NCBI GenBank assembly: GCA_040285855.1
Contig: JAUFOQ010000002.1
Coordinates: 1,798,001 to 1,862,000, forward strand
Reading direction: 5' to 3'
DNA from: Eukaryota sp. GEM-RC1
Taxonomy: Eukaryota
Length of the DNA stretch: 64,000 nt
Shown: positions 8,891-58,721 of the stretch, piece after piece
Position numbering within the stretch: position 1 is the stretch's first letter
How the letters are laid out: every line of letters starts with the position of its first letter
The notes under the pieces: model-generated
What the model was told of the DNA's origin: nothing
The model's database searches: none
What the model saw: the letters and a program-made list of their open reading frames with translations, nothing else
Position numbers and translations under genes: made by a program

Positions 8891-8972
8891 GATGAAAGTG
8901 AAATTTGAATTAATAAAATCTGTCTACTAAAGTAGGTCTAGGTTAGGTCGGGTCACAACCTGTTTCAGTGTA

Positions 8973-12898: not shown

Positions 12899-13951
12899 CT
12901 GTGCTTTTCACATGAGATCCTTAATTCACATTTTCACTCCCAATTTTGGACCCAATTTTTTCCTTCCTTCGTTTAGTGTTTCCACACCACTTTTCATTGG
13001 ATGACCATAAACATCACGTTTGTGTCTTTTATAGTTCTCTACACACACTATATCCTTGCTTGCGATGCTCTTGCTTCCTTACTTCGTGTTGATTCAACCT
13101 TTTGTTGAAATGAAATGCCACAAACTGTCACAGATCATCTTTTACACTCCTTCCCAGTCACTGGGTTGGTCTTTGGATCGAATCATACGTTGATTTTATT
13201 TCATCAGAACGACTCTGAAATTGTGAAAGTCTTCTCATGCTTCATCTATCTTTTGTATCGTCACCACCTTCTCTGTTAAGTTGTACTTTATGGACATTAT
13301 CATCATTTGGTTTGTAGATACTGAAATGTAAGGATCTTTTATGAGACAACACGGGTGTGCAGGATCTGATAACTGTGTAGAACTATTTAGCGTCACTGTA
13401 GGATACGTTTCTGTATCATTTGTTTCATAAAGAATACAGTTTTTGCTTATGTTTTTCTGGTCCACTGTCTTTTTATGAACAAGGGAGCGATGAATAGTTG
13501 AGGGTGACACGCTTTTATTGAGATAAGTCTGAACTACTTTGGAGAATTCGTGTAGGAACAGAAGAGGTTTCTGGGAAAGAACATTCTCAATAAAATCACC
13601 GTCATCATTGCTGAGGATACAACAGGAGTCCTGAGGAACTAGTTTGGGGTTAAAGAGATCTTTGATCCATCTACTGATAGTTGTTTGGTGAACCCAGAAT
13701 ACTTGAGAAATTGCGGACAAGAAAAAAGTAAGTATAAAGATCACGAACTCTGGTATCGGAAGTGGTGTGATAACGGAGTTTTGTCAAGTCAGTTATGGCA
13801 ACATCATCCAGACCCCGAACTTCCCTCCTGTTCACTGTAAGCAAGTAAAAGATCAGATTTATAGGACATATCAGCTTGACAAAAATGAAAGACTAGAAAA
13901 TGGGAATCAGGAGTGAAAATTCTTGATAAGCACCCAAAATAAAATCCACAG
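12899..13951 (-). mobile_element. Non-autonomous IS630/Tc1-like element inserted in Fanzor copy 1
   Basis: TA duplication at 12897-12898 and 13952-13953; CTGTG...CACAG ends; removing it restores KWNTWL-GEDHNSKT; contains an HTH fragment (13235-13744) similar to the 3988 transposase. Confidence 0.85.
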
Positions 13952-16900: not shown

Positions 16901-17616
16901 TCCAGACAAGATTGAATTTAAAATTTGTTGAGCAACAGATCGATGTTGACCAGTGTGAGTGTCAATGATGAGATTCAAAATTCTTTTCCTCATTTCTAGA
17001 GCATCATATTCATTGAACAATCGAACTTGAAGTAGAATTACGTTGATATCTAGTGACGCTTGTTCAAATTCAACAAATTTACTCATGTACTCTAAAATAA
17101 AAGGTCCACAGTCACCTTTGGTTTGGTGTTGAGTTACGAAAAGCCTTCCTAAATAATGATAATTGAAAGGAAAAAAACACGCTCATGAAATTGTCTAATA
17201 ACATCTTCGCAACGACCTAAAGTATCTGAAAACTTTTGATGTTGATTTTGAGTAAACATTGGATCAAGGGAATAGTATCTTTTTCTCTTAATATCACAAA
17301 TCAACAGAGTCCAGTGAGTTGCTTCATTATTAAAGATACCATCGTTTATTGGAATAAACAAATATTGTTTGGTTGGTGGTCTGGAAGAATTCATCAAATC
17401 TAAGGTTTCTTGAAATAATTTGTGAAGATGCCAACGATCTCTTTCTTCTTCAGCCAAATTGTCCTCTGTAATTGCAAGTGACAATGCTTCACACGAGAGA
17501 TATGAACATTTAACACTATGTTCAGTAATGTACTGTCCATAAAAGTCTACAATAGTGGTCCATAACCAACTATGAGGTAGCAAAGAATCAATATTGGAAT
17601 GATTTTCAATTAGATC

Positions 17617-17664
17617 GGGTCCAGGATTAGACTCAATGTCCCCGTCCATAGTCAAATCACGGAG
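17617..17664 (-). other. 2A-like StopGo (ribosome skipping) motif LRDLTMDGDIESNPGP
   Basis: Exact D(V/I)ExNPGP consensus, in frame and directly upstream of the protease domain. Confidence 0.85.
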
Positions 17665-18196
17665 AAATTGTGATGACTGGAGATTTATTTTGGATTTTGT
17701 AATGCAACAAGAACCACTACAGTATGGAGTACTATAACAGAAACAAAAAAGAAATAGAAGAGATTTGAGGATCGAGGGACCCATGAAAATCTACATAAAG
17801 ACCTGACGGTCTTGAGTGAAAAGACAACAAACCAAGCAAAGGAGTGATCTGATGATCAAAAGACCCATGGAAGGCTCCTGACAGTGGGGGAGACGAAGCA
17901 CAGTGAGATATCTAACCAACACGAAGTCGATAGACATCTCACTAAGCGAATGATCTTAAATTTCTGTTTGAACTATTTGTGGTTAATGTCTACATTGACA
18001 TGTTGACATCTTGACAAGTTTGAGAATATGTCACTGATACAATAACAGTTGATGTCGTACTAATTGTAACTAACAGTATATGGTATATGATGTGAAATTG
18101 GAAAAAAGAAAACAATATTTATTCTATAATTACAAAACTATGTGTATAAATGATTCCACATCACTGTGGAAAACTTACCTAAATCCATGAAGCAAT

Positions 18197-20775: not shown

Positions 20776-21270
20776 CAGGGCATCGAAAAGTTGAATTGCC
20801 AATACAATTATTTGAATACATTGGTATGAAACATTGATTGGTTCAATTTAAAACACTGAAACATTGATTGGTACGATGTTCGAACATTGGAACATTGGTC
20901 AATTAAAATTTGCGCCTTTTGTCTCAAGACCACAAAACGCAATACCAAATTGCACCTGATAAAGATACAACATGTCCTTTATGAACTAAATACATAACTA
21001 TTATAATTTTCATGTTGTACTACTACTAGTAGTGGCAATATTTGAAACATTGGAACACTATCAAACATTGCAACATCGTGTGGATCAAGTGGTGGTAAAC
21101 TTTATTCGGCACCCAATAAAGTAACCTTCCTACAAAACTATGAAATTGTAAATAATTGGATCAATACCTAACATTGAAATATTGATTGGTTCAATTTGAG
21201 ACATTGACATTGGTATTGGTTAAATACCAATCATTGACATTGTCAATCAATTCAATTTTTCCGGGCCCTA
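20776..21270. mobile_element. hAT-like MITE
   Basis: Imperfect TIRs CAGGGCATCGAAAAGTTGAATTG / TAGGGCCCGGAAAAATTGAATTG; subterminal ACATTG repeats; near-TSD CAATTAA on both sides. Confidence 0.6.
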
Positions 21271-21450
21271 CAATTAAACTGTCATCAACTAACAAGTGGT
21301 CCTCTGAAATGACATATTTACAGAGAGACCAACACCAATTCTCATACAATATTCTGACAATTTAACAAACTGTAACATTGAATGAGTATGTCATGTTGTT
21401 AGTAGGGTAGGTTCAAGTTTTAAATTTGACATCTTCCAAACTGAACCACA

Positions 21451-22869
21451 ATGGGCTTGAGTGATTTCGTTTCAGCTGTAGGATCTATCTTTTCTGGTAA
21501 ACCCAATGTGGAGACTATTCTAAGTGACAGTTTTCCTCTTCTGCCACAACACCATGTTCGAACTGTATTAACCCGAGCCAATGGTGTTGGAGAACATGCG
21601 TCTCACATTCTCTCAAGACATCATACTGATCTAAATGCTTTAATGCTTGATTTTCCACACATTGACCAAGAATCCCTCACAAACCGCTTCCTTGTTCACA
21701 AATGTTCTTATAGCTTAACTAGATCAGAACTTCTCAACCAATCCCCTGCTAATGGCCATTCTTCCAGTGTCCGCAACGTACCTAAGCGTAACAATAGAAA
21801 GAGTGTTTCTCTAGCGGATCTCAATGATCTCAGTAGTAAGTACAGTTTTCTCCCTCCTGAACATATTGAGTCTATTTGTCAAACATATCCCAAGAATTCT
21901 GCTCTTACTCTCCTTATGAACAGAAATCGAGACGTACAAAGTCTATTTGACAAGTTTAAACAGCATCTTGATCATGAAACTATTTGGAAAGTTTATTTCG
22001 AAAAGAACTTCAACAAAGATATGTCAGAAACTCGTCTAAAGAATCTAAAAATATCAAAGAACCCCACATTTCCCAGTCAAAATGTTCAAAAACCTGCTAT
22101 TCCAACGAAACCCAAACCTTCAACCAGCCATCCTAATTTTTCAGTTGAAAGTGACCATTTGAATAGTTACGAAATTCAAGAACTGACTCGTTTGTTTGAG
22201 GAATTTCCTACACTTGATAGGCCAATAATTGAACAACTTTTCAAAGATAATTATAATCTGTATCATTCCACTAAGAGAGCTATTAATCAAACTCTGGTAT
22301 TTCAGAATAGTAATAGCAAACTTTCTCCCAAGACCAATGTGCCCAAAAAGGAACCAGTTGCTAAAGGAACACGATCACAATCATCACGTCATCAAGGTCA
22401 CGTTGACGATCATTATTCTAAAGAGACAGTTATTGTTGAAGAAGATTCGTGGAAAGAAACAACTAATTACGAAAATCATCCTGATATTCTTGCGGGAATG
22501 ACAATTGACAATTTTGAAGAACTTTTAATTCTTGAACAACGTTTGACCATGACTTTAGCTGTGTTTAAAGAAACTTTACCTCCAAATTCTTTGGAATCTC
22601 ATAAGGGTTTTCGTGAACTCCAAGAATTAGTTTCTAGTGCCAAGCAAAAGATTTCTGGTTTAATTTCGGGATCTCTTAGTGCAAATTCAAGAAATCTGAT
22701 TGAAACTTGTCAATTACTAGAAGTAATGCAACGAAAAAACCTCAAGAAAGTGCTTGAAATCAATTGTACAGACAACTCGAATAACGATTTACTAATTGCA
22801 TTGGAGTCGAACAATTTAAATGTTTTACCATCACCTTTTTGTGATTCAATATTGTATGTGAAAGTGTAG
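21451..22869 (+). CDS. Multi-CUE-like repeat protein, paralogue B
   Basis: LSDSFPLL, LMLDFPHID, LFEEFPTLD repeats; homologous along its length to 7454-8890. Confidence 0.6.
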   Translation: MGLSDFVSAVGSIFSGKPNVETILSDSFPLLPQHHVRTVLTRANGVGEHASHILSRHHTDLNALMLDFPHIDQESLTNRFLVHKCSYSLTRSELLNQSPANGHSSSVRNVPKRNNRKSVSLADLNDLSSKYSFLPPEHIESICQTYPKNSALTLLMNRNRDVQSLFDKFKQHLDHETIWKVYFEKNFNKDMSETRLKNLKISKNPTFPSQNVQKPAIPTKPKPSTSHPNFSVESDHLNSYEIQELTRLFEEFPTLDRPIIEQLFKDNYNLYHSTKRAINQTLVFQNSNSKLSPKTNVPKKEPVAKGTRSQSSRHQGHVDDHYSKETVIVEEDSWKETTNYENHPDILAGMTIDNFEELLILEQRLTMTLAVFKETLPPNSLESHKGFRELQELVSSAKQKISGLISGSLSANSRNLIETCQLLEVMQRKNLKKVLEINCTDNSNNDLLIALESNNLNVLPSPFCDSILYVKV

Positions 22870-22998
22870 ATTTAATCAACTATTGATTGTATTTTCTTTA
22901 AACAATCTAGAATTCTTCTTATTACATATCTTACAACACTACTGACAAGAAACACTACGATTCCTTTTGTATCATCGTCTTGGAGGAGGAGGAGGAGG

Positions 22999-25596: not shown

Positions 25597-27163
25597 CTAC
25601 ATAATCGAACAACTCTTTTCTTTTAACGGAGGTTCAGAATCAACAAAAGACCTTCTCTTTCTGCTCTCTTCTGACGTATCCAATTCAATCAAATTTGACA
25701 CGTAATCAAGCTGACCCCCACTGACTTTCTTCTTTTCACTCACAGCATCACGTACTGATTGCAATAACTTCTGGTCAAAATCTTTAACTACAAATACAAA
25801 GTCATTTCGATAATAATGATAGACATCTATCTGGGATTCAGATAAATCAAGTAAAGATGCAAGAGCAGGTTCTAAATCACGTGATTTGGACCTGGAAACT
25901 TGCCTAATTGCAAAGATTGTTCGACGATCAGGATTGTAATCCTCACCAGATAGATTCAGTTGCCCAATGCTCTTGTGTAAGTACAAGTTATTGAGGTAGT
26001 TCTCATAACTAGGATGATTAGCTTGGAAAGAGAGAAAACAATGGCAGTTAGAAGAGAATCAAAACCAGCTGAGTGACAGGAAACTTCCAGAAACGGAATT
26101 GTCTGATACCCATTCACAAATGACAGCAGTTTATTGATTGACTCGTCACCCTCGTCACAATCAAACAATAGCTGTTGATCATTGTTAACCACAAGACTTT
26201 TAAAGACTTCTACCAGAGAAAGACGTGCAAAAGTCCCTATTCCCTGCGTTATTTTACAAGTATCATATACTTTGGGAAAGTTCTTTGAAACAAAATCCTT
26301 AAATAACTGTAACGAAGTTATAGAGAGACCATAAAAGATTGTAGAAACAAGAACTAAATCTCCCAGTCCTCCATGACAAACAAGAGGCTTTCCACAAGCA
26401 ATGATGTGATCAAAAATCAATCTGACCCCAATCACGTTCTTGATTTGACCGTCTCTGGACTCGTCAATCCTCTTATCATACGAGTAAGCACCCTCAGCAT
26501 CGAACTTGTACACTAAAGAGTGTCACCATCAGTCACACTACGCCAAGTGGTGTACTGATTTTGAACAGTGTTATGGACGAGGAACCGTTGTTTTGGGGAG
26601 AGATTCTTTAGAGGGAGGACATCCAGAGCATCGTTTTCAGCAAAGGAAGTAAGAGTAGAGGTAAGTTCGGTTAAGTAGTGAGAATCTTCATCAGAGGAAA
26701 CAAAGGGAACTTGCTTCCTCTTCTTACGAACCTCCTTGACAAGAGTTTCCCGTAGTTTCGTTTCTTGAGTGGGTGTTAAGTAAGAGACACCTTCAGTAAT
26801 CCAGGTTTGGAGATTAAGTCCGTGGTTTGTAAGAAATTCTAGAACTCCAGTGGAGAGAGTTAGATATTGGTTGTTTTGAAAGTGTTTGTTGTACTTTTGG
26901 TAGACGTACATGTGGTAGGATTGAAGTGATATGGTGTTATCAGGTTGTTTGGTTGAGCAAGTAATACCGAGCTGGAAAACACAGCAGGGAGTAAGAGCAG
27001 CTACTTCTGACATGAATCGTTGCTCAACTGTGTCAAGAGGATTATGTGTGAGTTGTTCGAAGGTAGAACTAAATTCGAAGTCACAAGAGACAAAGTCGCA
27101 ACTAGTGATATTCTGTTGAATCTCTGGCCATTTTTCAAGAAAAGAGGAGTTGGAAATGTACAT
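25597..27163 (-). CDS. PARN/CAF1-family DEDD ribonuclease with R3H domain (split by frameshifts)
   Basis: FVSCDFEF, QLGIT, FLTNHGL, QRFLVH (R3H), KPLVCHG..DL, YDT, HSAGFDSLLT. Confidence 0.85.
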
Positions 27164-27273: not shown

Positions 27274-29251
27274 ATGGGTGTCTACGGATTGACTACATGG
27301 CTGAATAATCAAAAAGGCTTCAACTACTACTTCGATCTCAATAGATTTCAAACAACTGAGTACCATCTTGCAGCCGATTTTCTCAACATTTGTCACAATT
27401 TCTCAAGTTGCTTTGCCCCCCACTTCATAGAAGGTATTGATGGAGTCTCTCTTTATCGCTATGCTGTCGAACTGTTCTCTGAGCTGAGAGCTCGAAACAT
27501 TATTGTCCATCTCTTTGTAGAGATTCCAAATCAAGAAGACCTACTCTTTAAGTTTGACCGTAGCAAAGAGATATGGGAGACGGAGTATATTGCTATGATG
27601 GAAATACCGGAAGAAATGTACGAGTCTTCTCACAGAAGTCTTCCACTTCACGGATCGTTTGGATTCATGCAAGCAGCACATCAAACTGGTCATCGTTTGG
27701 TCTTTGTTCCTGGTGAGGGCGACAGTTACATGGCTCATGCAGTAGCTTCCGGAGTTTGTTCTGCCGTCTGGAGTTCAGATTCGGATTTCTTAGTGTTTCC
27801 CAAATGCAGAATGTTGGAACTACGAAACTTCAAGATGGTATTGGAAAACTTGCAACAAAACAAAAAGTGTAAACACAAACTTATTTCATCTGAAGACATT
27901 GCTCGTCGTCTGAAACTTACTGAAGCTGATCTCATTACATTTAGCAGTGACTGCAGGTTGTGATTTTACCAAGTCAAGTCTAGAGAAGTCTAGACATACA
28001 AAAATGATCTCTGGTCACACATTCTCAAGCAAAAGGATCAGAGATATTGCCCATCAATTGTCCAATAAGAAACTTCGTCCTAAGTTTCTTGAAATGTGGG
28101 GAAGTATTTTACAATCGAACAAGGAACTCTCATCGCTAGTCGATTTTTCCAAAAGATTTTATTACTACCACCTCATCGAATCAAATGCTATTATACGTGC
28201 CCAACCGAGCTCTTCATCACGTGATTTTGCTGAGTTCTTAACGCATTGGAACAATTTCTATTTCTCTCGTGAAATCCTTAAGTTTGATCCCTCTTTAACC
28301 TACAATAACTTTAACCTGACAACAATTGACTATAATCTGACTATTGGTAATCACGTATTGTATTGTGTTTTGAATGAAGTTGGTCTTTCAAAAGAAATTC
28401 TTTGGGTTGGTCAACTTGATGCTGATGCTGAGGTTTTTGTTTTTGACAAAGTGAAACAATCTCTGAGATCAGACTTTTGGCCCACCAACGCTTCTCCTAA
28501 AAAAGCCTTGTCCAATAATCCCAGGGATAGAATTGAGACTGCGTTTACTCTTCTGGCACATTGGGTTGACTATCACAACGTTCCTTCCTCCAATGTCTTG
28601 GATCAATTAGCCAAATTGTACGAAGCAAAACCGAGTCTATTATCAGTTGTTTTCTATGTATGGTTTTTATCTGCTAGTCAGATTCCGTTTGTTAAATTCT
28701 CGGATCTGGTTTTGCTTGCTTTTGTTGCTGTGAATGGCCAGCATGCCTCTTTTAATTTTGGTATTGAATTTGAGACTAATTATGAATCATTTGTTCTCTA
28801 TAAGGCTCTTAGTTCAACTCTAAGCAGTATTTTTCGCTTCAATATTTTGATGGGGTTTGAGGATTCCGTTACAATACTAAGATCTATTAACTTCACTTTC
28901 TATTCCTTCCTAACTTCACAGTGTAGTTTTTCAGAATCTCCATCAGTCAGTGATTGCCTAAACTTAGTCTCAGATATGATTGAACTTCCTTTAGATGAAC
29001 ACGAGGTCAGACTAGTCCACTTTATAATGTCTGTCGTCAATTCTGATGAAACAACTGCCATTCCTGATATTGATTTGGGAAACGTTTCCACTTGGGACGA
29101 TACTTACTATTATGAGATTCAAGAATTGAAATCCCCTATACTGAGTGATTTTGATGTTGTTAGTTTAAATGTTGCCAAGATTAATGTCAGTCAACCCAAG
29201 TCAAAGCCTGTTGGAACTTTGAATCCATTTGACCTATTAATGGATGATTGA
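27274..29251 (+). CDS. XPG/FEN-like PIN-domain protein, Asteroid/FAM120-like (frameshift near 27945)
   Basis: MGVYGL, ADFLN, GEGD, SSDSDFLVF, AGCDF motifs. Confidence 0.75.
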
Positions 29252-29449: not shown

Positions 29450-30171
29450 ATAGTTTTTTCTATCTCGCCCACTACAATACTTTCAAGTAGATGTACTCAT
29501 TGATGTGCTTGAAACCCATCTAAACACTCATCTCGTGACCTGGCCTTGGTTAAAACCGTTAATTAAAGCAGCAGATGAAAGAAATGACTTGAGAGCTCTG
29601 GAATTCGTTGAGCCAATTCTGATCTGTTGATTGATGACGTGATGGCACTTACTACTGAAGAGTTTAAAACTCTGTCCAACTACTGCACTTCCACTCAATC
29701 ACTTGCGGTTTATTAAGTCGATGGTGGAATTAGTTCTTTATAAAAAGTTTAGATTTGATTGAATTTTCGAACATCTTAAATTCTTGTCCAATTGAAGCAT
29801 TTTCTTTTCAAGAATGGGATGAGTTTCTGTTTGTTCCTTTAAAGGAAGTCAAAGAATTAGAAGCCGATTTAATGAAGTTTCTGTTTACACGAGTTAAGAA
29901 TGTTTGTGTTACTTCGTTAGTTGTTGAAAACTCTTATTTAAACTCCGACATAACTAAAATACGGACTAAAATTGCGGAGTTAAAAAGCAAATTAATTAGT
30001 TTCTCACATTCTAGCAAAGATTCACGATTAACAGTCACTGAAGATAAAAAAAGTGTTTCATTTTTTGAACTGTATGCATTTGGACCAGGAAATATCCTGG
30101 GCAATGCTCCACTTCTTCCAGGTAATGAGTTTACTTGGTACTCTTTTACAGACAGGTATCGTGTATTATGA
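29450..30171 (+). pseudogene. 5'-truncated paralogue of the BTB gene at 1392-2447
   Basis: Direct nucleotide similarity (ctcatctcgtgacctgg, gcagatgaaagaaatgacttgagagct, WDEFLFVPL) with indels. Confidence 0.75.
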
Positions 30172-33039: not shown

Positions 33040-33500
33040 GGTATCCAAATAGTATAATGTACTGCAAATGTCCAAACTTTAAGTCGTCAGACTGGAATTT
33101 TTCCATCATTTTCTGATGAACTGACGGTTGTTAATGTGATTACTGTGGATGTTTGTAAAAAAAGTACATTTAGAGATGCTAAAAATGGAGAGAATCTCCT
33201 TGATTGTTCAGAACAATTTAAGATAAACAAATACGATGTTGCTTGACTGCTCTCAAAAATACAAAGCATGTTGATTACAACTTTTACAATTTTCCAATTT
33301 TAATTTATGGTCGACTTGGTAAGGATGCTCTTTGTTTTATCTCTGACGTTGGAAAAGTTGTTAGGAGAAGAATTTGATCAAGCAAAAAGTTTGATCGTTG
33401 TTCTGGTTGAATCGTATGGTCGTTACAAACAGTAAATCAGTTCTTCTTATGATCTCGAAAGCTTTTTCAACTCCTAGTGTTTTCTATAAAGAAAAAGATT
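33040..33500 (+). mobile_element. Degenerate RLE retrotransposon tail, relative of 58020-58721
   Basis: Shared nucleotide blocks gtgattactgtggatgtttgtaaaa and aatttatggtcgacttggta. Confidence 0.75.
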
Positions 33501-33734
33501 CTGTGAGTTTCCATGACAGTGTGCACATATATAGGAGCATTATATATTGCATATAATGCTAGAAGCTTTTCAAAAACACGTAAAAAGACACGCAAACATT
33601 TATTTCGCATTAGCTTAGCTAAAAATAATCGTCGCGCTTTTTGTGCTTTTTTAATGGACATTTCAAGTGCCGTTGCGTCTTCTTTAGTCATTCGCTTTCC
33701 TCAACACTGTAATTTTAATTTGAAGGATTAAGAA

Positions 33735-36221: not shown

Positions 36222-36989
36222 CAGCAATGTAAAAATATCTTATTGTTATCTTATTGTTTTTCTGACATTCAACAATAAATATATTGTCTGGATTGATATC
36301 TTATCTTATTTATTGGTTATCTTGAGTCAAAACAATAAATATATCTTCAATAACGACAGTAACAAATCACTAAGAACAAGAATTTGATCACATTCATCAA
36401 TTGTAGCCTGATTGTATTGAGGAGTGAGGTACTTTATTAAATTTTCCAATAGAAGTTTGATCCCACAGATCAACATTGTACAACAAGAACAGTTGCTTTC
36501 CTAACGCTTTTGAGTTCAAATTTGGTTTAGTGTTTCCTGAAGTCCTTCTTAGCTCTACTGAAAAGCATTCCAGATGTGAATGCTTTATTCGGTACCCAAT
36601 AAGCTAACCTTCCTACAAAACTATGAGCATCCCATATTCATTTCTAGTTACAAGTATACAATATAAATCTATATATTTTAAATCTTGATTAGTTCGTTGC
36701 TGTTTACGTTTGTTCAATCTTTTGTTTGAGCCACCGTGACTGCATGCTCTCTGTTACTTTGGAGTTCAAATGCTTCAACACAATTCTACTTTTTTCTAAA
36801 TTGACATCAAGATAAAATCAGGTTACAGAAAGAAAATGAATGTTCTTGAATTATGTTATCTTATTGAAATATATCGTATATTGTTGAGTTTTCAAGATAA
36901 ATATATTGTGGAGAGAGAGTGTCACAATAAGATAACAATAAATATATTTATTGTTATTGAACAATATATTTATTTATTTTACATTCCTG
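36222..36989. mobile_element. hAT-like MITE immediately upstream of coronin
   Basis: 8-bp TSD GTTGGGTT (36214-36221, 36990-36997); TIRs CAGCAATGTAAAA / CAGGAATGTAAAA. Confidence 0.85.
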
Positions 36990-43274: not shown

Positions 43275-44684
43275 TTAAATCATCATGTCATCAGAATAAG
43301 ACACGTTATACTTACTCATTAATCCAAATGGAATTTCAACATCAGAAAACTCTGCCAGATACAGCTGAAGAGCAGATTTGGCACATATGATATCCACACA
43401 CTCTGGCCTTCTTAGCAATGGATGAAGATGTCGTTGATATCGTAGAGATGGGAAAACTGCTTGAACAGATTGCCGACGGACTGATTCCTTGATTTGAGGA
43501 TATAAGGTATTATGAGTCAACCAGTTGTCATCACGAACCTCGTTTACAACTTCCTGTAGAGAAAGATCGTCTTGTTCACCCTTTTCAATGTAATCCAGGC
43601 AGTAAACGTTGTCCTTTGGTAGATCTAATCCAAGATCTGCAAGAGCCGCGACAAGTAGCACTTCGCGTTGTACTCTCATTCGTTCTTTCTCTTCCCTGTC
43701 AGCTTGAATCCTTTCTTCCTCAGCATTAATGAATTCTTGAACTTCTTCTGCTGTTTTTCTTCCTTGAATAAAGTCATCTTTAATAGTAGCGAGTTTGTAA
43801 ACTCCTAGATGTTCGAATTTGACTGTCCAAATTGCTCTACGGACTTCTACGACAAGAATTTCATCTGAGACAAATTGCGGTATTTTGCCCAGCTTTTCAA
43901 TAAGCAGTTCTTGTACACAAACCTCTTGATCTTGGGTTCGTTCTAGCAGATGCATGCAGTGGCCTAGTGTTGCTTTGAACTCTGTTTTTCGAAGGCCATT
44001 GTTCATGAAATCAAAAGCAACAGTTTCAGTAAAATAGTTCAACCATTGTTCATTGTCAAAAGAGAAGGTAGCAGACAGATAGTTCTTCATGTACTTGAAA
44101 CGTTGTTCACGAAGTTCCAGCTTTCTTAAGCGGAACTGTTCACGTTTCTGTCTGAATTCGCGGTATTCATCATAGGAGTGCTTCCACATTGACATTTGTC
44201 TTACATCAGAGATCCTGAATCTTCTAGCAAAAGAATCAAGAGGCAAGAGATCATCGTTGTCGAGTCGATACTCTTGTTTAGCATGTTGGCGAGAGCAAGT
44301 GAATTCAGGGTTGTAGGAGAACCCTAGGCACTTACCCCATTTGGCTGTTCTCAAAAAAAGTTTGTATGAAAGATGATACTGTTTCCAGATGATTTGGCGT
44401 TCATTATCAGAACCGTGAAGCCAATGAAGCGCAAGAAGCATTCTTGGTTTGATGATAGGAGTTTTGAAATGAACTCCTAAAAGAATACGAAAGACGTGAT
44501 GTGGTTGACTAAGAGGGTAGATGGGATTCTCTTCACAGGCTATTTTCAATGGTGGTTCTGAGGAAAGTGAATCAGGTGAGGGAGAATGAGATCTCCGGCG
44601 CGGAGAACCCGCATCAATATCAGATTTGTCTTCCTGATCTTCGTAAGACTCATGATGAGTTCCAGGGGCGATCATTGTAGCCAT
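43275..44684 (-). CDS. Uncharacterised protein with a possible XPA-C-terminal-like motif
   Basis: Intact 469-aa ORF; AKQEYRLDNDDL...F.ISDV and RE.LL..AL..LGL.L..D...C..YI motifs. Confidence 0.5.
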   Translation of the reverse strand: MATMIAPGTHHESYEDQEDKSDIDAGSPRRRSHSPSPDSLSSEPPLKIACEENPIYPLSQPHHVFRILLGVHFKTPIIKPRMLLALHWLHGSDNERQIIWKQYHLSYKLFLRTAKWGKCLGFSYNPEFTCSRQHAKQEYRLDNDDLLPLDSFARRFRISDVRQMSMWKHSYDEYREFRQKREQFRLRKLELREQRFKYMKNYLSATFSFDNEQWLNYFTETVAFDFMNNGLRKTEFKATLGHCMHLLERTQDQEVCVQELLIEKLGKIPQFVSDEILVVEVRRAIWTVKFEHLGVYKLATIKDDFIQGRKTAEEVQEFINAEEERIQADREEKERMRVQREVLLVAALADLGLDLPKDNVYCLDYIEKGEQDDLSLQEVVNEVRDDNWLTHNTLYPQIKESVRRQSVQAVFPSLRYQRHLHPLLRRPECVDIICAKSALQLYLAEFSDVEIPFGLMSKYNVSYSDDMMI

Positions 44685-45706
44685 TGCAGTAAATAGAATT
44701 GAGGCTAGGGGTTAGAAAAATGCAATTTTAAATTTCTCTCCAGAAGATTTTGACTGGAGCATTCTGAAATCCTTATCTTGTCAATTTTCACCTATAGTCA
44801 TTGAGTTGGCTTCAAAGAGTGGGCAAACAGAGATTTTCGCGTTCAATCTTACCATTTTTATAACGCATCATTAACCAATGCTGATCATAGTTTAACATCA
44901 ATGTATTAGTGTAAATAACAATAACTGATACACCTAGACTGCAGTATTAGACCACAAATTCACCAACTTCACTATTCTGACCAATTTCTACGTCTTCGTC
45001 GTCACTACAGGCTTCTACGATATCATAACCCCTTTTCCAACCAGTCCTGTAACAGGGTTAAAGAAGTGAACGAATCTGCTCCTCCTCTTACTTCTAATGG
45101 ATTCAGACAATTTATTTAGTAGTGATTTAAAAAGTTACAGTATCTGAGCACTTTACATTGATATTCGGTGGCCCGTCGTCTATAAAAAGTGCGACATTAC
45201 CCACAAGTCAATTAAAAAAATGACTTGACTTGGAAATGACTTGACTCAAGTCGATCTACTTGTGAATTGAGTGACATTGGACAACTCTAGTTCTAAGACA
45301 CACTTAACGATTTCATGTACAATGTAGTTATTATTGATTACGTTCAATTGTTTAAGCAGAAATCTAAATTGAAAGTGTACTAATTGGAGTAAAAGTACAG
45401 TGTTTAACATTTACAGTGTGTTTTAATATCGTTTGTGAACACAGTTTTGGTCGTTTCTTCAGAGTGGCCAACGGTGGAAGCAAATGCTGACCGAGGCTTA
45501 GATAGTGAGCTAATGTAACTACAAAAAAGCGGATTAATGTGCGTAAAAAAATACACTACAAGTGAACAACAAATAAATAAAGACTATTAAAACAAACTAT
45601 CTAACGAACTACCCAATTAGTTACAAAACAACTTGGACACAATGAAACTACGAATGAGTACTGAACATGTAAAACATGTGATCTATTTGCAACTTCAATT
45701 TCCTAG

Positions 45707-46114: not shown

Positions 46115-46559
46115 ATCAAAGCTGTATCCTTTCTTTGTCCTTTTTTTGCTTTGTGCTCTGTTCATCAATACATTCTTGCTGTGAAACTGTTTATACCTTG
46201 TCAAGAGAGACATATAATACTGTTAATTGAATGATTGTTCATAATGTACACTAATATGATTTACACCAAATGAAATCTCATTTTGCTTCCATTGTGTCTT
46301 TATAACAACAAGGAAGAATAACTTGTATGTAATAGTGATTCATTGACATTTGCAAACACATTCGCAAATACAGCACACCGTTGATCGTTCTCACATTCCA
46401 ATTACTAGTACTTTAATTAATCTAATACTAGCCAAGATGGGATAGGCTAGTAACTATTTTGCATAGGTGATTGTTAGGGAAACTAGAGTACATACAGAAA
46501 TAAAAAGAACTTAGAAGAACACATACAGTTTCCAAAATTTTTGATGATGAGTTTTCTGC

Positions 46560-46842
46560 TCTTGAAATGGCTGAAAAAGGAAAAAATACAAAGTACTGTC
46601 ACTTAATTGACCAATTGAATGTTGACAGATACAATTCTTTTGTGTTTCAACCTTTTGCGATGTCGATATACGGTAATATTGGATCAGCTGCACAAGGTTT
46701 TTTAACTTCCTTTGGTAAATTGTGTGCTGAGTACGGTAAAGTTTTCAATGAAAATTTATGGTTGAGTAGGTTAACGTTTGCGTTGTTTCGTTCAATGGTA
46801 TATTTTAATTCAATTTTAGGTAAGTTGTTCGGCTATGGATAG
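46560..46842 (+). mobile_element. RLE non-LTR retrotransposon 3' fragment
   Basis: AEK.K..KY...FVFQPFAMSIYGNIG..A..FL tail motif, like 58089-58721. Confidence 0.7.
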
Positions 46843-46910
46843 AAGGATCATAGTTTAGATACTTTAATTAGTGTCTGTTAGTTATTAACTTCTGCAAATG
46901 CATTTATTTC

Positions 46911-47271
46911 CATAGCTTGAAATTATGAACTCAAAAAAATAATTATTATTATTATTATGATTATTATTATTACAAGCATAATTCCATAATATTGATAATT
47001 ATGGCAATGATAGCCAAACAGAATTTTGTAGTGGAAAACAATCGAAACTCATCTACATGTACGTTTACTACTGGTTATAATGAGGGTTTTCTTCTTCTTT
47101 GAGATCAGGAAGCTCAGAAACCTTCTAACTTGTAGTATAGAGCAAGACACAAGACAATAATAGGTGTGTAATTTCGACAAGTATGGTGAAAAAAAGATTA
47201 TTATTATTATTATAGAGATTATTATTATTATGACAAATTATTATGGAAAAATTATATAATTTCAAGCTATG
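46911..47271. mobile_element. hAT-like MITE
   Basis: Perfect 16-bp TIR CATAGCTTGAAATTAT; 8-bp TSD TTTATTTC (46903-46910, 47272-47279); subterminal (ATT)n. Confidence 0.92.
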
Positions 47272-49063: not shown

Positions 49064-49328
49064 TGTGAACCGTGTTCATCCATGTCATGAATAAAATCAA
49101 CGTTGTACAACCATCCTACTACACATACATCACATTGATCAACATGTTCGACAAATGTGCATTTACTCCTTCTTATGATAATCTTTCATCTTCTCATTCT
49201 GACCGTCACAAGCTGAAAGCACATGTCGACTTGGAAATCTTGATTGATCATGTTTTTCTTGTGTTCATAAAGTTCAGTCACTTATGCTAGTCTATTATCA
49301 CTATCTATTGTCTTTTAGTTGTCATCTA

Positions 49329-49503
49329 AAAGATGTGTTTTACAAGATGTGTAATACAACATTCGTAATACAAGATGTGTTTTACAAGATGTGTTTTACA
49401 AGATGTGTTTTACAAGATCTGTAACACAACATTTGTAATACAACATTTGTAATACAAGATGTGTAACACAACATTTGTAATACAAGATGTGTAATACAAG
49501 ATG
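49329..49503. repeat. Minisatellite array (TACAAGATGTGTTT and TACAAGATGTGTAACACAACATTTGTAA variants)
   Basis: Directly visible tandem units. Confidence 0.9.
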
Positions 49504-50787
49504 AAACTATCATAAATACCTATATTGTCCAATCTTTTCAAAATTAAATATAATTCAAATAAAACACACATCCCAATCTTTTCATCATTTTTCAAATACT
49601 CTTTCAAAACATGAAACAATTCCACAAGCACATCACTACAATAACGTTCATCAACATTATCCCTATTAATCACATCGGTAATGTAACAGTTTCTTATTGT
49701 TTTCACTTCCATACTTGATGAAGAATCAGACCCAATACAATCTAGTACATTATCGACAATTGACTGAATTCCAATAGTTAAGTCCACTCTCAATTGTTTA
49801 TAAGTAGCAACACGATCATACTCCAAAATAGGCGACAATGATATTGTTTCATAAGTCACATTGTCAGTTTGTTGATATTCACATATGGAATCACATTTTT
49901 CATTTTCAAAGCTTTCAGTCTGAACTTCCTTGAGACAAAATCGTTTTTCATCATCAATAAGAGGAAACACTTGGGAACTTTTTTCTTTCTATACCAGCAC
50001 TGACATTCTTATTTAATAATAAATTCTTCGTTGGTAAAGGGGTTTTCTTCAAACGGGGAAGTGATGGTAGAGTAATGTTGCCGCGTGGTAATTGAGGAAG
50101 TTTAGACTTTTTCACAAAAATCTCTGGGGAATTTTTGTTAAAAATTGAGTCACAATTAATAAATTTGGGAGGAATATCAGTTTCATCTTCTTCATCATTT
50201 ACCACAAAATCATCTAAACTTGTTGAAATTGTATCACTGTCAGATTCATCACCAGAATCGGATCCTGATAGTAGTGCTTCTGTTTCAAACAAATGTGATT
50301 TGTCTAAATGATTTTTGTCCAAGTCAATAATTTGATTATCATTATTTTCAATAATTTTTTCATCAACATTGTCATCAACAACTTCATCAACACCATGAAC
50401 AATTTCAGGAACAACAACATCATCCATAATTGGTACACTCGATTCTGCACAAAAGTTTGCAAACAATGAATTAAAATGATTGAAATCTCGTTGAAGACAA
50501 TGTTGATTTCCCAAAACATACAGATCAATAGTGGATGGCTTAACAGGATGAAAAGTTGAATAATACCATTGATACAATTCCAAATTTGGTACTGGATAAC
50601 TTCTTCCAATGCTTAAAATCTTTAAACTCCTCCAAGACCTAACCCTACTTAAGGTCACATAAAGTTGGGCATATTCCCAAAACTGAATAGCAACTTCAAT
50701 CCCGTCAATTGTTAATCCTTGGGATCGATGCACTGTTATCGCCCAGCAAGGTCTTAGCGGAAACTGAATTCTTTTCATGGTTTTCAT
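49410..50787 (-). pseudogene. PIF1-family helicase C-terminal fragment plus acidic tail (Helitron-like)
   Basis: RIQFPLRPCWAITVHRSQGLTID and QLYVTLSRVRS (motifs V-VI); an in-frame stop at 50818-50820 shows the N-terminal part is absent. Confidence 0.85.
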
Positions 50788-50789
50788 GG

Positions 50790-53700
50790 TTGTTGACGAA
50801 AATTGAGAAAAATCAAATCACAAACTCCAAATATCTCTTTGTTCCCCTTAGTGATACCATGACTAGAAATGCTAATTATTCCAGAGAAGGTGTCACTGGT
50901 TCTCATTGGGGTTTAGCCATTATAGACTGTTGTGAAAAGGAATGGATCTTCATTGATCCAATGTTAACTACCGTCGATATGAGTAAGTCTATGGTAAAAT
51001 CAGCTGTAGACATATTATCCGAAGTACTTGTGCCATGGGGGTATGTTTTCCGTTATGTGCCTGTGACTAAAACACAGTCTGCTAACGACTGTGGAGTTTA
51101 TGTCATTGCGTATATTCAAAAATATGTTGAACTTTTTAAAAGACTCACGTACGTTCCGTCTCTGATGTATTTGGAAACTTATTTGGTCCAAGTGAACACT
51201 GAACTTCAAGCAGACATATTTCGTGAAAAAATTCTGGATGTATTGTCTCAACAAGGGACACTTTATCTACAACAACGTCAAACCACAGTAGCTCCTATTG
51301 TACCATCGTTACCCATTCAACCTCCTGCCGGTAAAGAACATCCAACCACTTCAATTCCTCTCACAGGTTCACGTCTTGCTAGCACTAAAACATCTACTGG
51401 TTTTAGCACTAAAAAAAGTAAGGCCAAAATTTCTGATATTCCATCACCACGAGGTTCACCTTTAATTCAACGAAATCAATATAGAACCACCAGCTCCCTT
51501 GTATCAACTGGTGCCACTCCCATACGAAAGACTCACCGCCGTATGTCCACATTGGAATCATCTGAATTATCATCTGAATTACCTCCATCACCATCTGAAT
51601 TACCACCATCACCATCTGAATTACCACCATCTGAACTACCACCAAAATCACAGGCCTCCATTATGTCGTATCCATCGCCAATTCAAGAAGAAATCCATAA
51701 AATGGAAGTAAATCTACATACTGAGCCTATCGAACAAGAAATACAAATTCAAGTCTTTCTTAAATCCCCTTTACTTTGGAACAATCTGCCAACTTTTTGT
51801 TTAATTCATGTTCAAAGTGATTTTGCCAAAAAAGAAAGAATTAATGGCAAAAATGTTCAACTTGTTCAAGATGATGATGACATTGAAACTGTTGAAGGTG
51901 AAGCTGAAGATCAATTAGAAGTTAAACGTGATTCTTCTGTTGATCCGATTGTTTCAATTTCCATCCAGATCATTGATCACAATGAGTTTAATGAAAAACA
52001 CTTATTTTCTTATGGCAATTTTGAGACTACAAATTTGGATTTGTGTACTTTACATATTTCAGATAGTGAATCCAGTATGCTTAAAAACTTCATCTCCTTC
52101 ATTACTCAACATTGTCCGCGATTGTTTATGAGTTATGACTTTCACTTAGATACATTTCCCTTTCTTGTATCACGTTGTCAAGTCTTCAAAATCAATACAA
52201 CGTTTACTTTTCCAGAATTTAAACCCTATATTCCCTTTTGGTTCAACAAATGGTGTAAGGAAACAACTTTTGGTCCGTTTTGTAGTCTCGATTTGAATGC
52301 TGTATTGAAGAATTTTTATGTCTTTACTGGTGGCCGTTTTTTGGAAAATGTTGTTCAAATTTTTCTTGAAATGAATAATTTTTCTAAAAATGAAACTGTC
52401 AAACGCTTGGAAGAACTTAAGCATGACTCTGATCCTGATGAAGTTCAATTAGTCAATAATGTCCAAAACTTGCATGGCATAATTGACAGTATTAATGTTT
52501 TAGTTCCAGACAATCCCAAAGTGAAGGTCGATAAGATTAAAAAGAAATTTGGAGAAAGTAAATGAACTTTGGGCCAAGGAATCGACAAAACCGCTATTGT
52601 TGAACAACTCAATTCAACAATTACCTCTGATTGAATACTTGTTGGCTGACCTATTGGATCCCAAAAAGCAAACCTTACGTTCAAAGTCACCAATGAAAGT
52701 GGTTAAGAAACGACTAGACAATGTTGTATCCAAAGCGAAGGTTAAATTTATTGAATCTCGTGTTAAGAGAGCTCACCAAGTAAGAGTCCGTAGTACTCTC
52801 TTTTTGAAACATTTTTTTGTTCATAATTTTCACCATTCAGGTATTTTAGAATACATTCAGAAGTTACTGCCTGCTACTGTTCCAAATGTAACTGTTAAGG
52901 AAGAAATGAATTCTGATACAGATGAGTCAACTGATGAAGAAACAGATGTACCTTCAGAGTCTATCGATGCTGCTACTCCTCCTATTAAATTAGAAAATAT
53001 TGAAGATGCGAGTGATGAACCTAAACCTGAACCTGACCTTTGGACTAAAATTCAAACTACTAAAATTGAATTGCCAGACTGGAAGAATTTTTTTACGTTG
53101 AAATCAATGGAACAAGTGTTGTCTATGATGACGATTAGGGACCACAAACTTGTAAACAATCAGAATCATATTAGGACTGTACAAGAATCGTTAACAAACA
53201 TAATTTCTAAACCAAATGAGGCCTCAACTCAAAAACAGTTTGCTCAACATTTCTTGATGCATTACATTCCTCGTTTAGAACTAGCTGCTCGATCTGTTGG
53301 ACTTGATAGAATTGTGTTTCCCAGTAGTCATCGTTTATCTCGTATATTGCATTACATGGCTACTGAAATTATAACGAATTACAAGACAAACATGAGTGAA
53401 CACTTTCACGAATATGTTTTTCAAGTATTTAATTTGGTTACCCTGAAAAAGATAGACTTAACAAGCTTACTGATAAGAATCAACGACAAGAGTTGTGTAC
53501 AAAGCTTAATGAAGTCAGACAGTTGATCATTAATGGGGAAATTTCAAAAATTAATTTTCAAGACGTTGAAGTGTTTCCTGATCCCAATTCTAGACTGAGT
53601 TTACTATTTTTTAACTATTTGTTTACTTTTTTTGAAGGTAAAATGGAAAAAACAATCTATTATGCTGAAAAAGTAGACCCTTTGAAATTCTTAAGTCATG

Positions 53701-55577
53701 CAGTGTATTTGAAACGTCTTGTTGAAGACTCTTGTACTGGTGTTACTGCCAACAATCCTTTTCCTCTGACCAAATCACTGATTCCTAATCATATCAGATT
53801 GGACACTACATGGTTTAAAGAAGTTTATGCAGCAGAACTTATAGGAAGCTATGATGACGTTCGAAAAGATATTTGGCACTCAGTTTTGAAACCAAAGTGT
53901 CTTCCAAAGTCATTGTCTCATGACTTCAAATACAGTTCTATTTCTACAGATGAAGTTAGCTGTAGTTTAATAATGATGCGGAAAGATCTGCTTGATGGGA
54001 GAGGAAATCCTCATAAGAAGGTGAAAGCAGTTGACTACACAGCTACTGAAAGGTACATTGATTCTTTGAGTTCCACAGAAATTCAAAACTTAAATTTGAA
54101 ATCCAAAAGAATTGTTGCTATTGACCCTAATCAGCATGATTTGATGTACTGTGCTTCTTTAAAATCTAAGGAGGAAAAGGAAATCGAAGGTTTCGATACG
54201 TCAGCCAATCTCAGAAGAAGAAAGATTTCTCCAAAATCATCAAAGAAAAAAGGAAGCTTGAAAAAATTAAAAAAGGAATTGAAGGATTGGAAAGATGCAC
54301 CCACTATTGACAAACCATCAACTGTCAAGTTGAAAAATCGTGATGATTGGAAAGTATTCAGATACACTGCTGGGGAGCGCAATGCCGATATTAAAAAAGT
54401 CTCCATGGAAAAGAAAAAAACAAGGAAGGAAAGAAAAAGAGCTAAGAGAAAGAAGAGGAAGCTGGAGAAGAAAATAAGACGATATAATCTCCACCGTTTA
54501 TCTGAATCCGAACGGTTACAACAATACTCTACCCAATTTATTCACATTCCAGATGGCAGACGCATTGACATAAATGGGCAACAAATTTTAGATCAATGGG
54601 GCTCTAATTCGCCAGGTAGTAAATCTTGTGAATTGACTCAGTATTCTGCTTTTGTTCTTGGCAAAGAAATTACATGTTCTTTATTACGATCACCCACTAC
54701 TGATCAAAGAAATACTGAAGGAATTTACGAAGAAAAGTGGTTTAGACGGAATCGTCTCACACAGTATTCAAGAAAGGAACGAAGTGAGAAAAACATGCTT
54801 CACAGATTTGCTCTCCAGTTTGGAAACCCAGATGAAGTCGTTGTTGGGTATGGAGACTGGAACGACACTGCTTTTCGACGAAGAAGAGGTAAAGCATCGA
54901 CTGTAAAAGGTGCTTCAATTCGGAAATTATTGAGAAAATTTGGATTTAAAGTGTTCCTAGTTGATGAATTTAAGACCAGCAAATGTTGCTCTGCTTGTGT
55001 TTCCAGAAACGACGAAGGTATCTGTTCCAATCCTGACAGGATAAAAGTCACTGATCCTCATTGGAAGAAGAAGTTACAGAAGGAAGAGAAAGAATTAAAA
55101 AAGGAAATTATGGAACACAATCAATTAGACAATATTGTGGAGCGTAACTTTGATGAAGAATGGACAGACCAGTTGCCATTATCGAAAGAAAGATTGAAGA
55201 GCAAAAAAGTCTCACCATGGGGCTTAGTTGAATGTGCTAAATGTCATGTCCTCTGGAATAGAGACTTCAATTCTGCTATCAATATTTACAATATTGTAAA
55301 TGGAACCATTCAAGGTCAAGGTAGACCTGCCATCCTCGAGAGACCAAAATCTCAAACAACACCTGTCGTGGATGGCGGGAATACAGATCAGATTCCTAAG
55401 AAAAAGACTGTGAGTAAGGGTAAGGGTAAGGGAAAGCGTCCTCTAACAAAAGTCAGAGGTCCTAGCAAGTGTGGTATATGTTTTCAACCTGGACATAACA
55501 GAGCAACTTGTCCAAATAAGCCTAAGAAAGATGTACCCAAGGACTCACACGTAAACCAGAAAGATCAGGAATCTTGA
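50790..55577 (+). CDS. Fanzor polyprotein copy 2: Ulp1/C48 protease - degenerate DEDDy exonuclease - Fanzor RuvC - CCHC knuckle (5'-truncated; two compensating 1-nt shifts)
   Basis: SHWGL (50904), FIDP, TQSANDCGVYV (Cys 51090); DPIVSIS, SESSMLKNF, PRLFMSYD; RuvC AIDPN (54123), YGDW, VDEFKTSKCCSAC (54966), CAKC..WNRDFNSAINI (55263); CGICFQPGHNRATC. Confidence 0.9.
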
Positions 55578-56030
55578 ATCTATGAAGTTAGCTCGTTTTA
55601 AAAGACTTTGCGAATGAGGATATTTGTCTAATAATTTAGACATTTGTTCAAACTGTGAGTTTTGCTCTATATGAGATCATGAAAATGTGAAGGGTTATGC
55701 CTTTTGCATTTGGAATGAAATTCACAGCAGCGATCTATTCTTCTCAAAAACTCTACTCCCAACCAAAAGATGTACTTAATCTTATAGGAGAAGTAGTTGA
55801 TGTTAGTTTCTCAGTGATGAATGGAAATATATTATCAATTGATTTCGATGAAAAATTAAATAGATTTAATAGTTTTATTTCCAGCATAAGAGGCAAAGAT
55901 ACATCTGTAAAGATACATTGCGTAATGATTTCCAAAAATTGATTGATATTGCTAAATTATTACATCATGATAATTTTGTATCTTGTGTGTTTGATATTGT
56001 TAATAATTATTTATAGTTATAAATTTTGAT

Positions 56031-58019: not shown

Positions 58020-58721
58020 TTCTGGCCCTCTAATTTACCCAATGATCTTCAATGCAAATGTGGTAAATAAGTTACTTTTTCTCACCTTTTGAGTTGTAAT
58101 CGTTTCATTACTTATAGAACTTGTATTCATGATGCTGTCAGAGATCAAATTCTTGCCATGTGTAAGTCCTACAAAATCGAATCTTTCGTTGAGCCACTGT
58201 TGAGATCACTGGAAATCAATAATTCAAAAAATAGTGATTCTGATAAGACTTTTGGTAAAAGAAGAGCTGATGTCATAGTTCCATCAGTCAACTATGAACT
58301 AACCGTTGTTGATGTGATTACTGTGGATGTTTGTAAAAGAAGTGCATTCAAGGATGCTAAAAATGAAGTTTCTCCACTGAATTCTTCAGAACAATACAAG
58401 AGAAACAAATATGATGAACCACTGACTGCTCTCAAACATATTAGACATGTTGAGTACAAATTATGTCCTTTTGCAATTTCAATTTATGGTCGACTTGGTA
58501 GAGATGCTCTTTGTTTTCTCTCTGATTTTGAGAAAGTGGTCAAAAAGAATGAACAAAAATTTGATTTCAAATTTTGGTTGAATCGTATTGTTTTTACAAT
58601 ATTTAAAACCATTCCTATCATGATTTCAAAAGCTCTATTAGCTCTCAGTGTTTTTTATGAAGAAAAAGCTGATGTGAGCTTTAATGGCAATAATTGTTGC
58701 TTTAATGATAATGAGTTCTAG
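58020..58721 (+). mobile_element. 5'-truncated non-LTR retrotransposon tail (Zn knuckle plus restriction-like endonuclease, CRE/R2-like)
   Basis: CKCG...HLLSC...HDAVRD, VEPLL, RRAD, VDVIT, E.YK..KY, PFAISIYGRLG. Confidence 0.85.

Follow-up and report, generated by a model that had tools for sequence, protein, structure and literature searches.

A truncated Fanzor1 gene copy of Eukaryota sp. GEM-RC1 and its relatives point to a fusion of protease, exonuclease, and predicted RNA-guided nuclease

Can a Fanzor, a predicted RNA-guided nuclease, share one gene with a C48 protease and a PolB-type exonuclease? The question is raised by a locus at positions 50787–55577 of a 64,000-nucleotide stretch of Eukaryota sp. 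GEM-RC1 (contig JAUFOQ010000002.1, positions 1,798,001 to 1,862,000), here called the window, which is eukaryotic, with host genes that carry short GT–AG introns. From the letters alone, an original prediction had read the locus as a single polyprotein gene. The analysis below finds that this copy (the window copy) is a broken, 5′-truncated relic and that the fusion is real at family level; based on sequence comparisons, the architecture of protease, exonuclease, and Fanzor1 in one gene is very likely correct. The Fanzor1 variant is real and apparently undescribed, and it is best studied in the sister proteins and in the intact proteins of a second organism. Literature is cited by PMC number or DOI.

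Architecture of the locus and its sister proteins

Read from stop to stop, the plus strand holds three overlapping open reading frames (ORFs), 50691–52565, 52525–53526, and 53433–55577 (ORF1 to ORF3), of which ORF1 and ORF3 lie in the same frame, as originally predicted. In Pfam searches, both predicted N-terminal domains were found in ORF1 with scores that passed the curated cut-off: Peptidase_C48 (E 6.7e-6), whose match is confined to profile positions 74–184 of 217, and DNA_pol_B_exo1 (E 2.9e-7). ORF3 matched Cas12f1-like_TNB, the zinc domain of TnpB and Fanzor (E 3.2e-8). Rfam gave no match at the locus, and an Atlas search with ORF1 returned leads that were all under 0.9. The features of the window copy are listed below; sister proteins carry P numbers, and family A is the family of the window copy.

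50787–51131, plus strand: C48 (clan CE) protease, SENP8-like, first 59 residues gone (Pfam, motifs, sister P0228)
51250–51780, plus strand: low-complexity linker rich in Ser, Thr, and Pro; contains a 21-nt tandem repeat (51571–51631) and no Gly-Gly
51780–52580, plus strand: PolB-type 3′–5′ exonuclease domain, likely inactive (Pfam; alignment to Pfu-type polymerases; family alignment)
52542–52551, plus strand: break 1, where 11 nt, one unit of a short tandem duplication, are missing relative to sisters
52680–53450, plus strand: N-terminal portion (WED/REC) of the Fanzor1, which includes an acidic insertion; in the same ORF as the exonuclease in sisters
53446–53450, plus strand: break 2, an A5 run, with a frameshift in 8 of the 9 family-A sisters that reach the site
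53451–55350, plus strand: Fanzor1 REC, RuvC, and TNB (D54123, E54966, D55263; zinc cysteines at 54987, 54996, 55233, and 55242)
55310–55399, plus strand: second candidate RNA hairpin, in the ORF after the last RuvC motif (z −4.1, 0 of 200 shuffles)
55470–55511, plus strand: C-terminal CCHC zinc knuckle within a basic tail of ~80 residues (stop codon at 55575–55577)
55600–55749, plus strand: candidate scaffold of an omegaRNA, a pair of long hairpins rich in G-U pairs (z −3.8, 0 of 200 shuffles)

By exact look-up, the products of ORF1 to ORF3 fall into 90% clusters with 6, 7, and 26 members, which NCBI names as Eukaryota sp. GEM-RC1 (15 of the 26 listed), and copies at ~88–98% identity are dispersed over at least 12 contigs of that organism. 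All sister proteins are gene-caller products rather than observed proteins. Family A runs from a 2A motif through C48, exonuclease, and Fanzor to the zinc knuckle. Family B has two tandem C48 domains; family C, to which a second copy in the window (copy 1) belongs, has a protease in copy 1 and none in P0209; and the RCL family, from Eukaryota sp. TZLM3-RCL, has no protease. Hence, the protease cassette is optional, with 0, 1, or 2 per protein.

Joins between these domains are seen in other copies. Eight of the 246 collected proteins (P0005, P0194, P0223, P0225, P0228, P0229, P0237, and P0245) combine the protease Cys and the Fanzor N-terminal motif in one ORF, and the family-C sisters P0203, P0209, P0212, and P0215 join the exonuclease to the Fanzor. 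In six RCL proteins (P0033, P0178, P0193, P0219, P0220, and P0221; 1,394–1,494 residues), which are 6 of the 10 RCL proteins in two clusters, the frame is unbroken from 2A to RuvC-III; Pfam matched both exonuclease and TNB on P0033, P0178, and P0193. The predicted order of protease, exonuclease, and Fanzor in one gene thus stands at family level by way of the sisters; a whole three-part protein in a single ORF cannot be read from the window copy and, for the family, is likely from overlapping sisters.

The 2A (StopGo) consensus GD(V/I)ExNPGP (PMC3708506) was matched by 28 of 29 occurrences among the collected proteins. The motif directly precedes the first domain in all four families, including copy 1 (17643–17617, minus strand), and upstream of it lie tandem repeats (units of ~22, 33, and 38 codons) that vary between copies and are read as protein by the gene caller. 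Front cassettes have been exchanged: in P0195, P0237, and P0245 a B-type protease precedes an A-type exonuclease, in P0199 it is joined to an A-type linker, and the 2A of P0209 resembles that of RCL (14 of 21 residues identical).

Protease, exonuclease, and Fanzor1 modules

The catalytic set of the protease lies at His 50904, Asp 50955, the oxyanion Gln 51075, and Cys 51090, and the Pfam match together with these motif positions bears out the original C48 assignment. The N-terminal W-L-x-D segment is gone from the window copy and present in sisters. The Cys is retained in 12 of 13 family-A occurrences, Ser replaces it in the second C48 domain of family B (11 of 11), and the catalytic residues are kept between families at 26–41% identity. 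Matches of whole sister domains to solved structures were to SENP8 (E 7e-4, sister P0004) and NopD (E 6e-7), and the Atlas gave 0.95–0.96 to stand-alone C48 clusters of ~220 residues, one of them named SENP8, a score that is uncalibrated for parts of proteins. Since SENP8/NEDP1 and NopD, rather than Ulp1, are the closest relatives of solved structure, the proposed deSUMOylase-like activity must be widened, with NEDD8 an equally likely substrate; at this low identity, either NEDD8 or SUMO may be the target. A self-processing protease had also been proposed. None of the seven protease-bearing proteins tested has a Gly-Gly between protease and exonuclease, which argues against self-cleavage.

We took ExoI Asp and Glu, ExoII Asp, and ExoIII Y-x3-D as marks of an active PolB-type DEDDy exonuclease; family A departs from them at all three motifs, and the RCL family and family C keep all three intact (family C: DIE, ExoII D, YCLHD). 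The window copy has His 51807 and Gln 51813 at ExoI and Thr 52152 at ExoII, the ExoIII position being lost with break 1. Within family A, ExoI reads HVQ in 14 of 15 cases and DVQ in one, ExoII has Thr for Asp in 23 of 23 (the same Thr as in family B), and by alignment the ExoIII position holds Asn in sisters; a YLLAD segment considered as ExoIII was dropped after the family alignment. These replacements indicate that the family-A exonuclease is likely catalytically dead. The original idea of an end-processing module holds for the exonuclease-type domain and probably fails, for family A, in its function, as the catalytic acids are gone. The domain is nevertheless retained, even where dead, in all four families with a visible N-terminus.

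The N-terminal part of the Fanzor matches the Fanzors of families B and RCL (tblastn). ORF3 aligned with SpuFz1 (E 9.9e-14) and PpFz1 (E 8.9e-8), two Fanzor1 proteins of solved structure; its closest relatives are Fanzor1 proteins, which have a large REC lobe. The predicted RuvC codons and zinc ribbon proved to be as given, and the RuvC glutamate directly precedes the zinc ribbon, as the D-E-D arrangement of Fanzor1 requires. The published Fanzor1 motif, D-X(125,275)-[TS][TS]-XX-C4 zinc finger-X(5,50)-RD (PMC3627910), is found in P0014 at D161, T445–S446, C449/452/531/534, and R540–D541, with a first spacer of 283 that exceeds the motif range by eight owing to a basic insertion. RuvC motifs are invariant wherever matched among sisters, and an alignment-based model of a family-C protein (P0209) matched only Fanzor1 structures at E<0.001 (seven matches). 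The zinc knuckle match is weak (zf-CCHC_2, E 0.016, below the Pfam cut-off), and the knuckle is kept in P0034 and P0192. Both RNA candidates were chosen out of 22 windows scanned, and copy 1 gave no RNA-fold signal comparable to them.

Frame breaks, truncation, and the reading of the locus

Break 1 is crossed by 18 of the 19 sisters reaching that point: 17 show an offset of 11 nt relative to the window copy, P0003 reads through too, and P0243 is shifted by another loss. Judged from these alignments, the break-1 frameshift is private to the window copy; the one extra T near 52548 proposed for it is wrong, and an intron, which was also considered here, is unnecessary given the 11-nt loss. The predicted ORF start at 50709 lies outside the gene, the bases before 50787 being the antisense of a Pif1 helicase fragment; sister proteins align to the window only from 50787 (tblastn). 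Compared with P0228, the window copy lacks the 2A motif as well as the first 59 protease residues. With 11 nt lost at break 1 and the 5′ end missing, the intact ORF of ~1600 residues that two one-base edits were expected to restore cannot be recovered, and the window copy (50787–55577) is unable to make a three-domain protein. Two further features bear on this end of the copy.

50772–50791, no strand: 5′ truncation junction, with a 9-nt tandem duplication at the seam; sisters match from 50787
49954–50787, minus strand: Pif1 helicase 3′ fragment, last motifs only, ending at the same junction as the Fanzor copy

The Pif1 fragment is likely a host gene outside the element, and one deletion or inversion could account for both truncations. 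If the assembly is misjoined anywhere at the window copy, this 5′ junction could be the place, being the only candidate. No inverted repeat ends were found for the window copy. Just beyond the Pif1 fragment lies a 14-nt tandem array of 12 copies (49303–49526).

Break 2 is of a different kind. The addition of one A to the A5 run near 53446, as originally suggested, produces the state seen in the family-A sister P0151, and P0030, P0050, and P0189 of other families also read through, as does RCL. We compared 51 sisters with the window and tallied one-base frameshift sites, excluding two break-1 bins. Of 13 such sites, some of which are neighbors, 11 lie within 6 nt of a run of at least five like bases (background 14%) and 8 within 6 nt of a run of at least six (chance 5.9%), and homopolymer runs that are intact in the window are shortened in 5–7 sisters each. 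Nanopore R9.4 reads were used for GEMRC and R9.5 reads for RCL, with Illumina correction (PMC11316075); these assemblies were matched to the NCBI labels by name, a link that is our own reading. Under-called homopolymers in repeats are the probable cause of break 2.

Taken together, we favor, with some confidence, the reading that the locus is a truncated, frameshifted copy of an anaerobic protist's multicopy mobile gene that likely encodes one protein of ~1,650 residues, predicted to be RNA-guided and to aid the spread of the element. The roles that follow for 2A, exonuclease, and protease are more tentative. Translation would begin in the variable tandem-repeat leader, and the 2A would release this leader to leave a mature protein starting at a fixed proline. 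The Fanzor, with an omegaRNA from its own 3′ end, would cut the empty site or the sister chromatid and so help the element to spread. Where the exonuclease is intact (family C and RCL), it may trim the cut 3′ ends such that clean re-ligation is disfavored; in families A and B, it may be kept for a non-catalytic role, either structural or in the binding of DNA ends. The protease, being tethered, could strip NEDD8 or SUMO off host repair or silencing proteins near the target, and any moving enzyme would be provided in trans. Carried further, and as speculation that we consider possible rather than likely, this would be a new kind of eukaryotic RNA-guided element, in which the Fanzor of a StopGo-released polyprotein would bring a swappable, host-derived proofreading exonuclease and deNEDDylase or deSUMOylase to a guided site, thereby steering repair of its own cut and allowing transposase-free copying.

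Several observations weigh against this reading. A protease and a RuvC motif occur together in none of the 246 collected proteins, so the three-part protein of ~1,650 residues is pieced from overlapping sisters (P0228 up to break 2, P0151 across it, and P0014, P0024, and P0025 beyond). Of 9 family-A sisters, 8 have the break-2 shift of the window copy, and the start of about ten further proteins lies just past it, so this break could be genomic; besides assembly errors, true slippage mutations also fall at homopolymer runs. The exonuclease fold was not resolved in either structure model (ORF1 from single sequence, predicted local distance difference test score 38; P0209 alignment-based, in which the Fanzor was resolved). 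A 2A motif alone is insufficient for skipping (PMC3708506), and engineered exonuclease fusions impaired a Fanzor2 (PMC12923547). Finally, no target-site duplication of at least 6 nt was found at the window copy, nor, among the proteins listed, is there a 3′ excess of copies, which the cluster sizes of 6, 7, and 26 had hinted at, a result that is weak either way.

If break 2 is indeed genomic, family A would have spread as a split gene: −1 frameshifting or splicing would now and then yield the full-length product, if it is made at all, and the protease–exonuclease and RuvC halves would mostly be separate. The prevalence of the shifted state favors this, and GT–AG segments of 29 and 41 nt at break 2 would restore the frame and fit host intron sizes. 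However, P0151 and all other families read through, splicing out either intron would cost residues that families B, D, and RCL conserve, the A5 run is not a canonical X-XXY-YYZ slippery site, and further runs that are whole in the window are each shorter in several sisters; we regard a split gene as unlikely. The extra domains might instead be passengers, a non-long-terminal-repeat (non-LTR) retrotransposon 5′ cassette of repeats, 2A, and protease plus a polymerase fragment, captured mainly as an expression leader and of no use to cutting or spread. Non-LTR ORF2 proteins do carry 2A, some with N-terminal deubiquitinase domains (PMC13405545). Here, RCL and P0209 have no protease, family B has two of which the second is dead, and exchange of the protease between families is seen in the chimeras P0195, P0199, P0237, and P0245; two families have a dead exonuclease. 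Yet even where overall identity is 20–40%, catalytic residues are preserved in the protease (families A, B, and C) and in the exonuclease (C and RCL), and the exonuclease domain is kept in every family with its N-terminus in view, which makes the passenger explanation doubtful, although it deserves serious thought.

A third explanation makes the gene the cargo of a Helitron-like element, with the adjoining helicase as its RepHel. Fanzor1 is found in Helitron2 elements, often 5′-truncated (PMC3627910), Helitron-like elements stably carry Peptidase_C48 as an extra domain (10.1101/2024.02.08.579435), and the window copy has a hairpin at its 3′ side. The helicase, on the other hand, is nearer to PIF1 (E 2e-8) than to Helraiser (E 1e-4), is single-copy (a single-member cluster), and survives as a 3′ fragment only; no helicase fragment lies beside copy 1, and no Rep was matched among the ORFs scanned. 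We consider cargo status quite improbable, while movement by a RepHel acting in trans may occur. Finally, the layout could be suspected to be an artifact of assembly, or a set of unrelated genes that came together by chance, because the window copy lies against a truncated host gene and many indels mark its sisters. However, four diverged families repeat this order, which is found on at least 12 GEM-RC1 contigs and in intact ORFs of a second organism. Given that copy 1 has the same domain order and that there are dozens of sister proteins, chance is excluded, and this explanation as a whole is extremely improbable.

Other features of the window were recorded as follows.

12255–17790, minus strand: copy 1, family C, with 2A, C48, exonuclease with its acids intact, and Fanzor1
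12900–13951, minus strand: Tc1/mariner-like 1,052-bp insertion in copy 1, with TA on both sides and 5-bp inverted ends, a gap relative to sisters

Copy 1 has the domain order of the window copy, with a tblastn link at the protease only (~30%), and is broken by a stop at 15428–15430, frameshifts, and the insertion, which has a 32% match to a DDE_3 transposase ORF at 3919–4701 (plus strand). The frame of its protease is broken at 17180–17149 (minus strand), where either a 32-nt GT–AG intron or a one-base T-run shift restores it. Elsewhere, a 44-nt repeat (93%) at 21100–21143 and 36583–36626 translates to the tail of P0151, and another mobile element seems to interrupt that sister. Two copies of an ORF of ~480 residues at 7421–8923 (minus) and 21445–22894 (plus), up to 91% identical over 492 nt and without a Pfam match, are likely a further repeat family; an orphan ORF of similar size lies at 43275–44711. 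At 46504–46972 (plus), a motif recognized by eye, with an (ATT)n tail after it, probably marks the C-terminal end of a non-LTR retrotransposon of the restriction-like-endonuclease type; Pfam gave no match there. A structure at 63069–63917, with 32-nt inverted arms 785 nt apart and a 16-nt tandem repeat at one end, resembles a miniature inverted-repeat transposable element, and dispersed two-copy repeats of ~75% identity pair 1461–2149 with 29475–30138 and 33101–33518 with 58279–58689. An XPG-like (27914–27963) and a CAF1/PARN-like (25956–26058) host gene look frameshifted by eye, possibly through assembly indels; as proof of assembly error they were set aside as carrying little weight, one CAF1 break fitting a 29-nt intron and the XPG check giving no match.

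Distribution and comparison with known systems

Among the best 150 of 1,083 relatives (E ≤0.001), only P0033 exceeds 900 residues and only P0033 matches the exonuclease profile. The best 80 of 439 viral and the best 80 of 381 metagenomic Fanzor loci showed no exonuclease, C48, or 2A on the Fanzor ORF, the longest such ORF having 703 residues in the viral set and 821 in the metagenomic set, where 21 are cut at the 5′ edge. In one viral locus (L079, 2541–7196), an ORF of 1,552 residues with an exonuclease match (E 8e-6) lies just upstream of the Fanzor; it is probably a viral DNA polymerase, separate from the Fanzor ORF. A word-based search for Fanzors longer than 1,250 residues gave none and so missed P0033, which marks it as insensitive for these proteins. 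Searches from P0033 returned RCL proteins only, and those from P0005 returned GEM-RC1 proteins only. The layout is so far confined to these two named organisms, eukaryotic genomes being thinly covered in the collections searched. A tree of 33 rows unites family A, RCL, and two further GEM-RC1 Fanzors in one clade (SH-like approximate likelihood ratio test 100), with family C as a long branch elsewhere; a single origin was not rejected (approximately unbiased test, p 0.3).

A literature search that extended to sources other than Repbase and subscription journals found no description of a Fanzor fused to a protease, an exonuclease, or 2A, in keeping with the original prediction. The OTU, chromo, and RING domains that it had ascribed to Fanzors were seen neither in the available part of Bao and Jurka 2013 (PMC3627910) nor in that search. 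Fanzors are reported to contain further domains often (PMC10530073); figure S1B of that study, on Fanzor domains, may bear on novelty, and two of its supplements contain no C48 or PolB term.

Fanzor1 cuts DNA guided by RNA from the 3′ end of its element and is proposed to help transposons spread, in trans as well (PMC10432273), and the role of Fanzors in their hosts is described there as an open question. The enzymes that evolution has fused to a Fanzor hint at limiting steps, namely the processing of cut ends and the ubiquitin-like tags on host factors for repair or silencing. The natural variants, with active or dead exonuclease and 0, 1, or 2 proteases, form a ready comparison set, of which six intact ORFs could be expressed without repair. 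A natural exonuclease–Fanzor would be useful to editor design, given the impairment seen in engineered fusions, and 2A-like motifs, rare in cellular genes (PMC12846837), now extend to an RNA-guided nuclease gene.

Known Fanzor1 systems (SpuFz1, 8GKH; PpFz1, 9CF0; PMC3627910, PMC10432273, PMC11423790) share with the present families the WED/REC, RuvC, and TNB sequence, the D-E-D triad, the C4 zinc ribbon, multiple copies, and the lack of a transposase in the gene; the window copy may also share a structured RNA at the 3′ end, for which it has a candidate. Known and sampled Fanzor1 proteins are, however, single-module nucleases of ~600–850 residues, whereas the present ones reach 1,400–1,650 residues or more and add 2A, an exonuclease, and an optional protease in front and, in some, a CCHC knuckle behind. 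For the protease, the CE proteases of the SENP8/NEDP1/DEN1 and NopD types are the best solved-structure matches across the whole domain; that of the window family differs in being fused to a nuclease.

The 2A-bearing ORF2 proteins of non-LTR retrotransposons (PMC3708506; with Josephin or OTU, PMC13405545) likewise place an N-terminal GD(V/I)ExNPGP ahead of the first enzyme domain, may have an N-terminal ubiquitin-family protease module, and consist of a single long ORF. In contrast, the Fanzor families have an RNA-guided-type nuclease instead of reverse transcriptase or APE, no poly(A) or target-site duplication was seen, and Pfam found no reverse transcriptase domain in the intact proteins of 1,473–1,491 residues. 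DnaQ-like exonucleases occur in LTR polyproteins (PMC6338049). Helitron-like elements that bear C48 (10.1101/2024.02.08.579435) resemble the present families in having it as stable transposon cargo, and the Helitron2-borne Fanzors CRe-1/2/3 (PMC3627910) in occurring as 5′-truncated copies of Fanzor1; in those systems C48 accompanies RepHel and the Fanzor is a separate gene, whereas here there is no Rep and C48 lies inside the Fanzor ORF. Finally, the TREX1, TREX2, and T5 fusions to evoMmeFz2 (PMC12923547) also tether an exonuclease to a Fanzor, but those are artificial and impaired in activity, whereas the present fusion is natural and PolB-derived.

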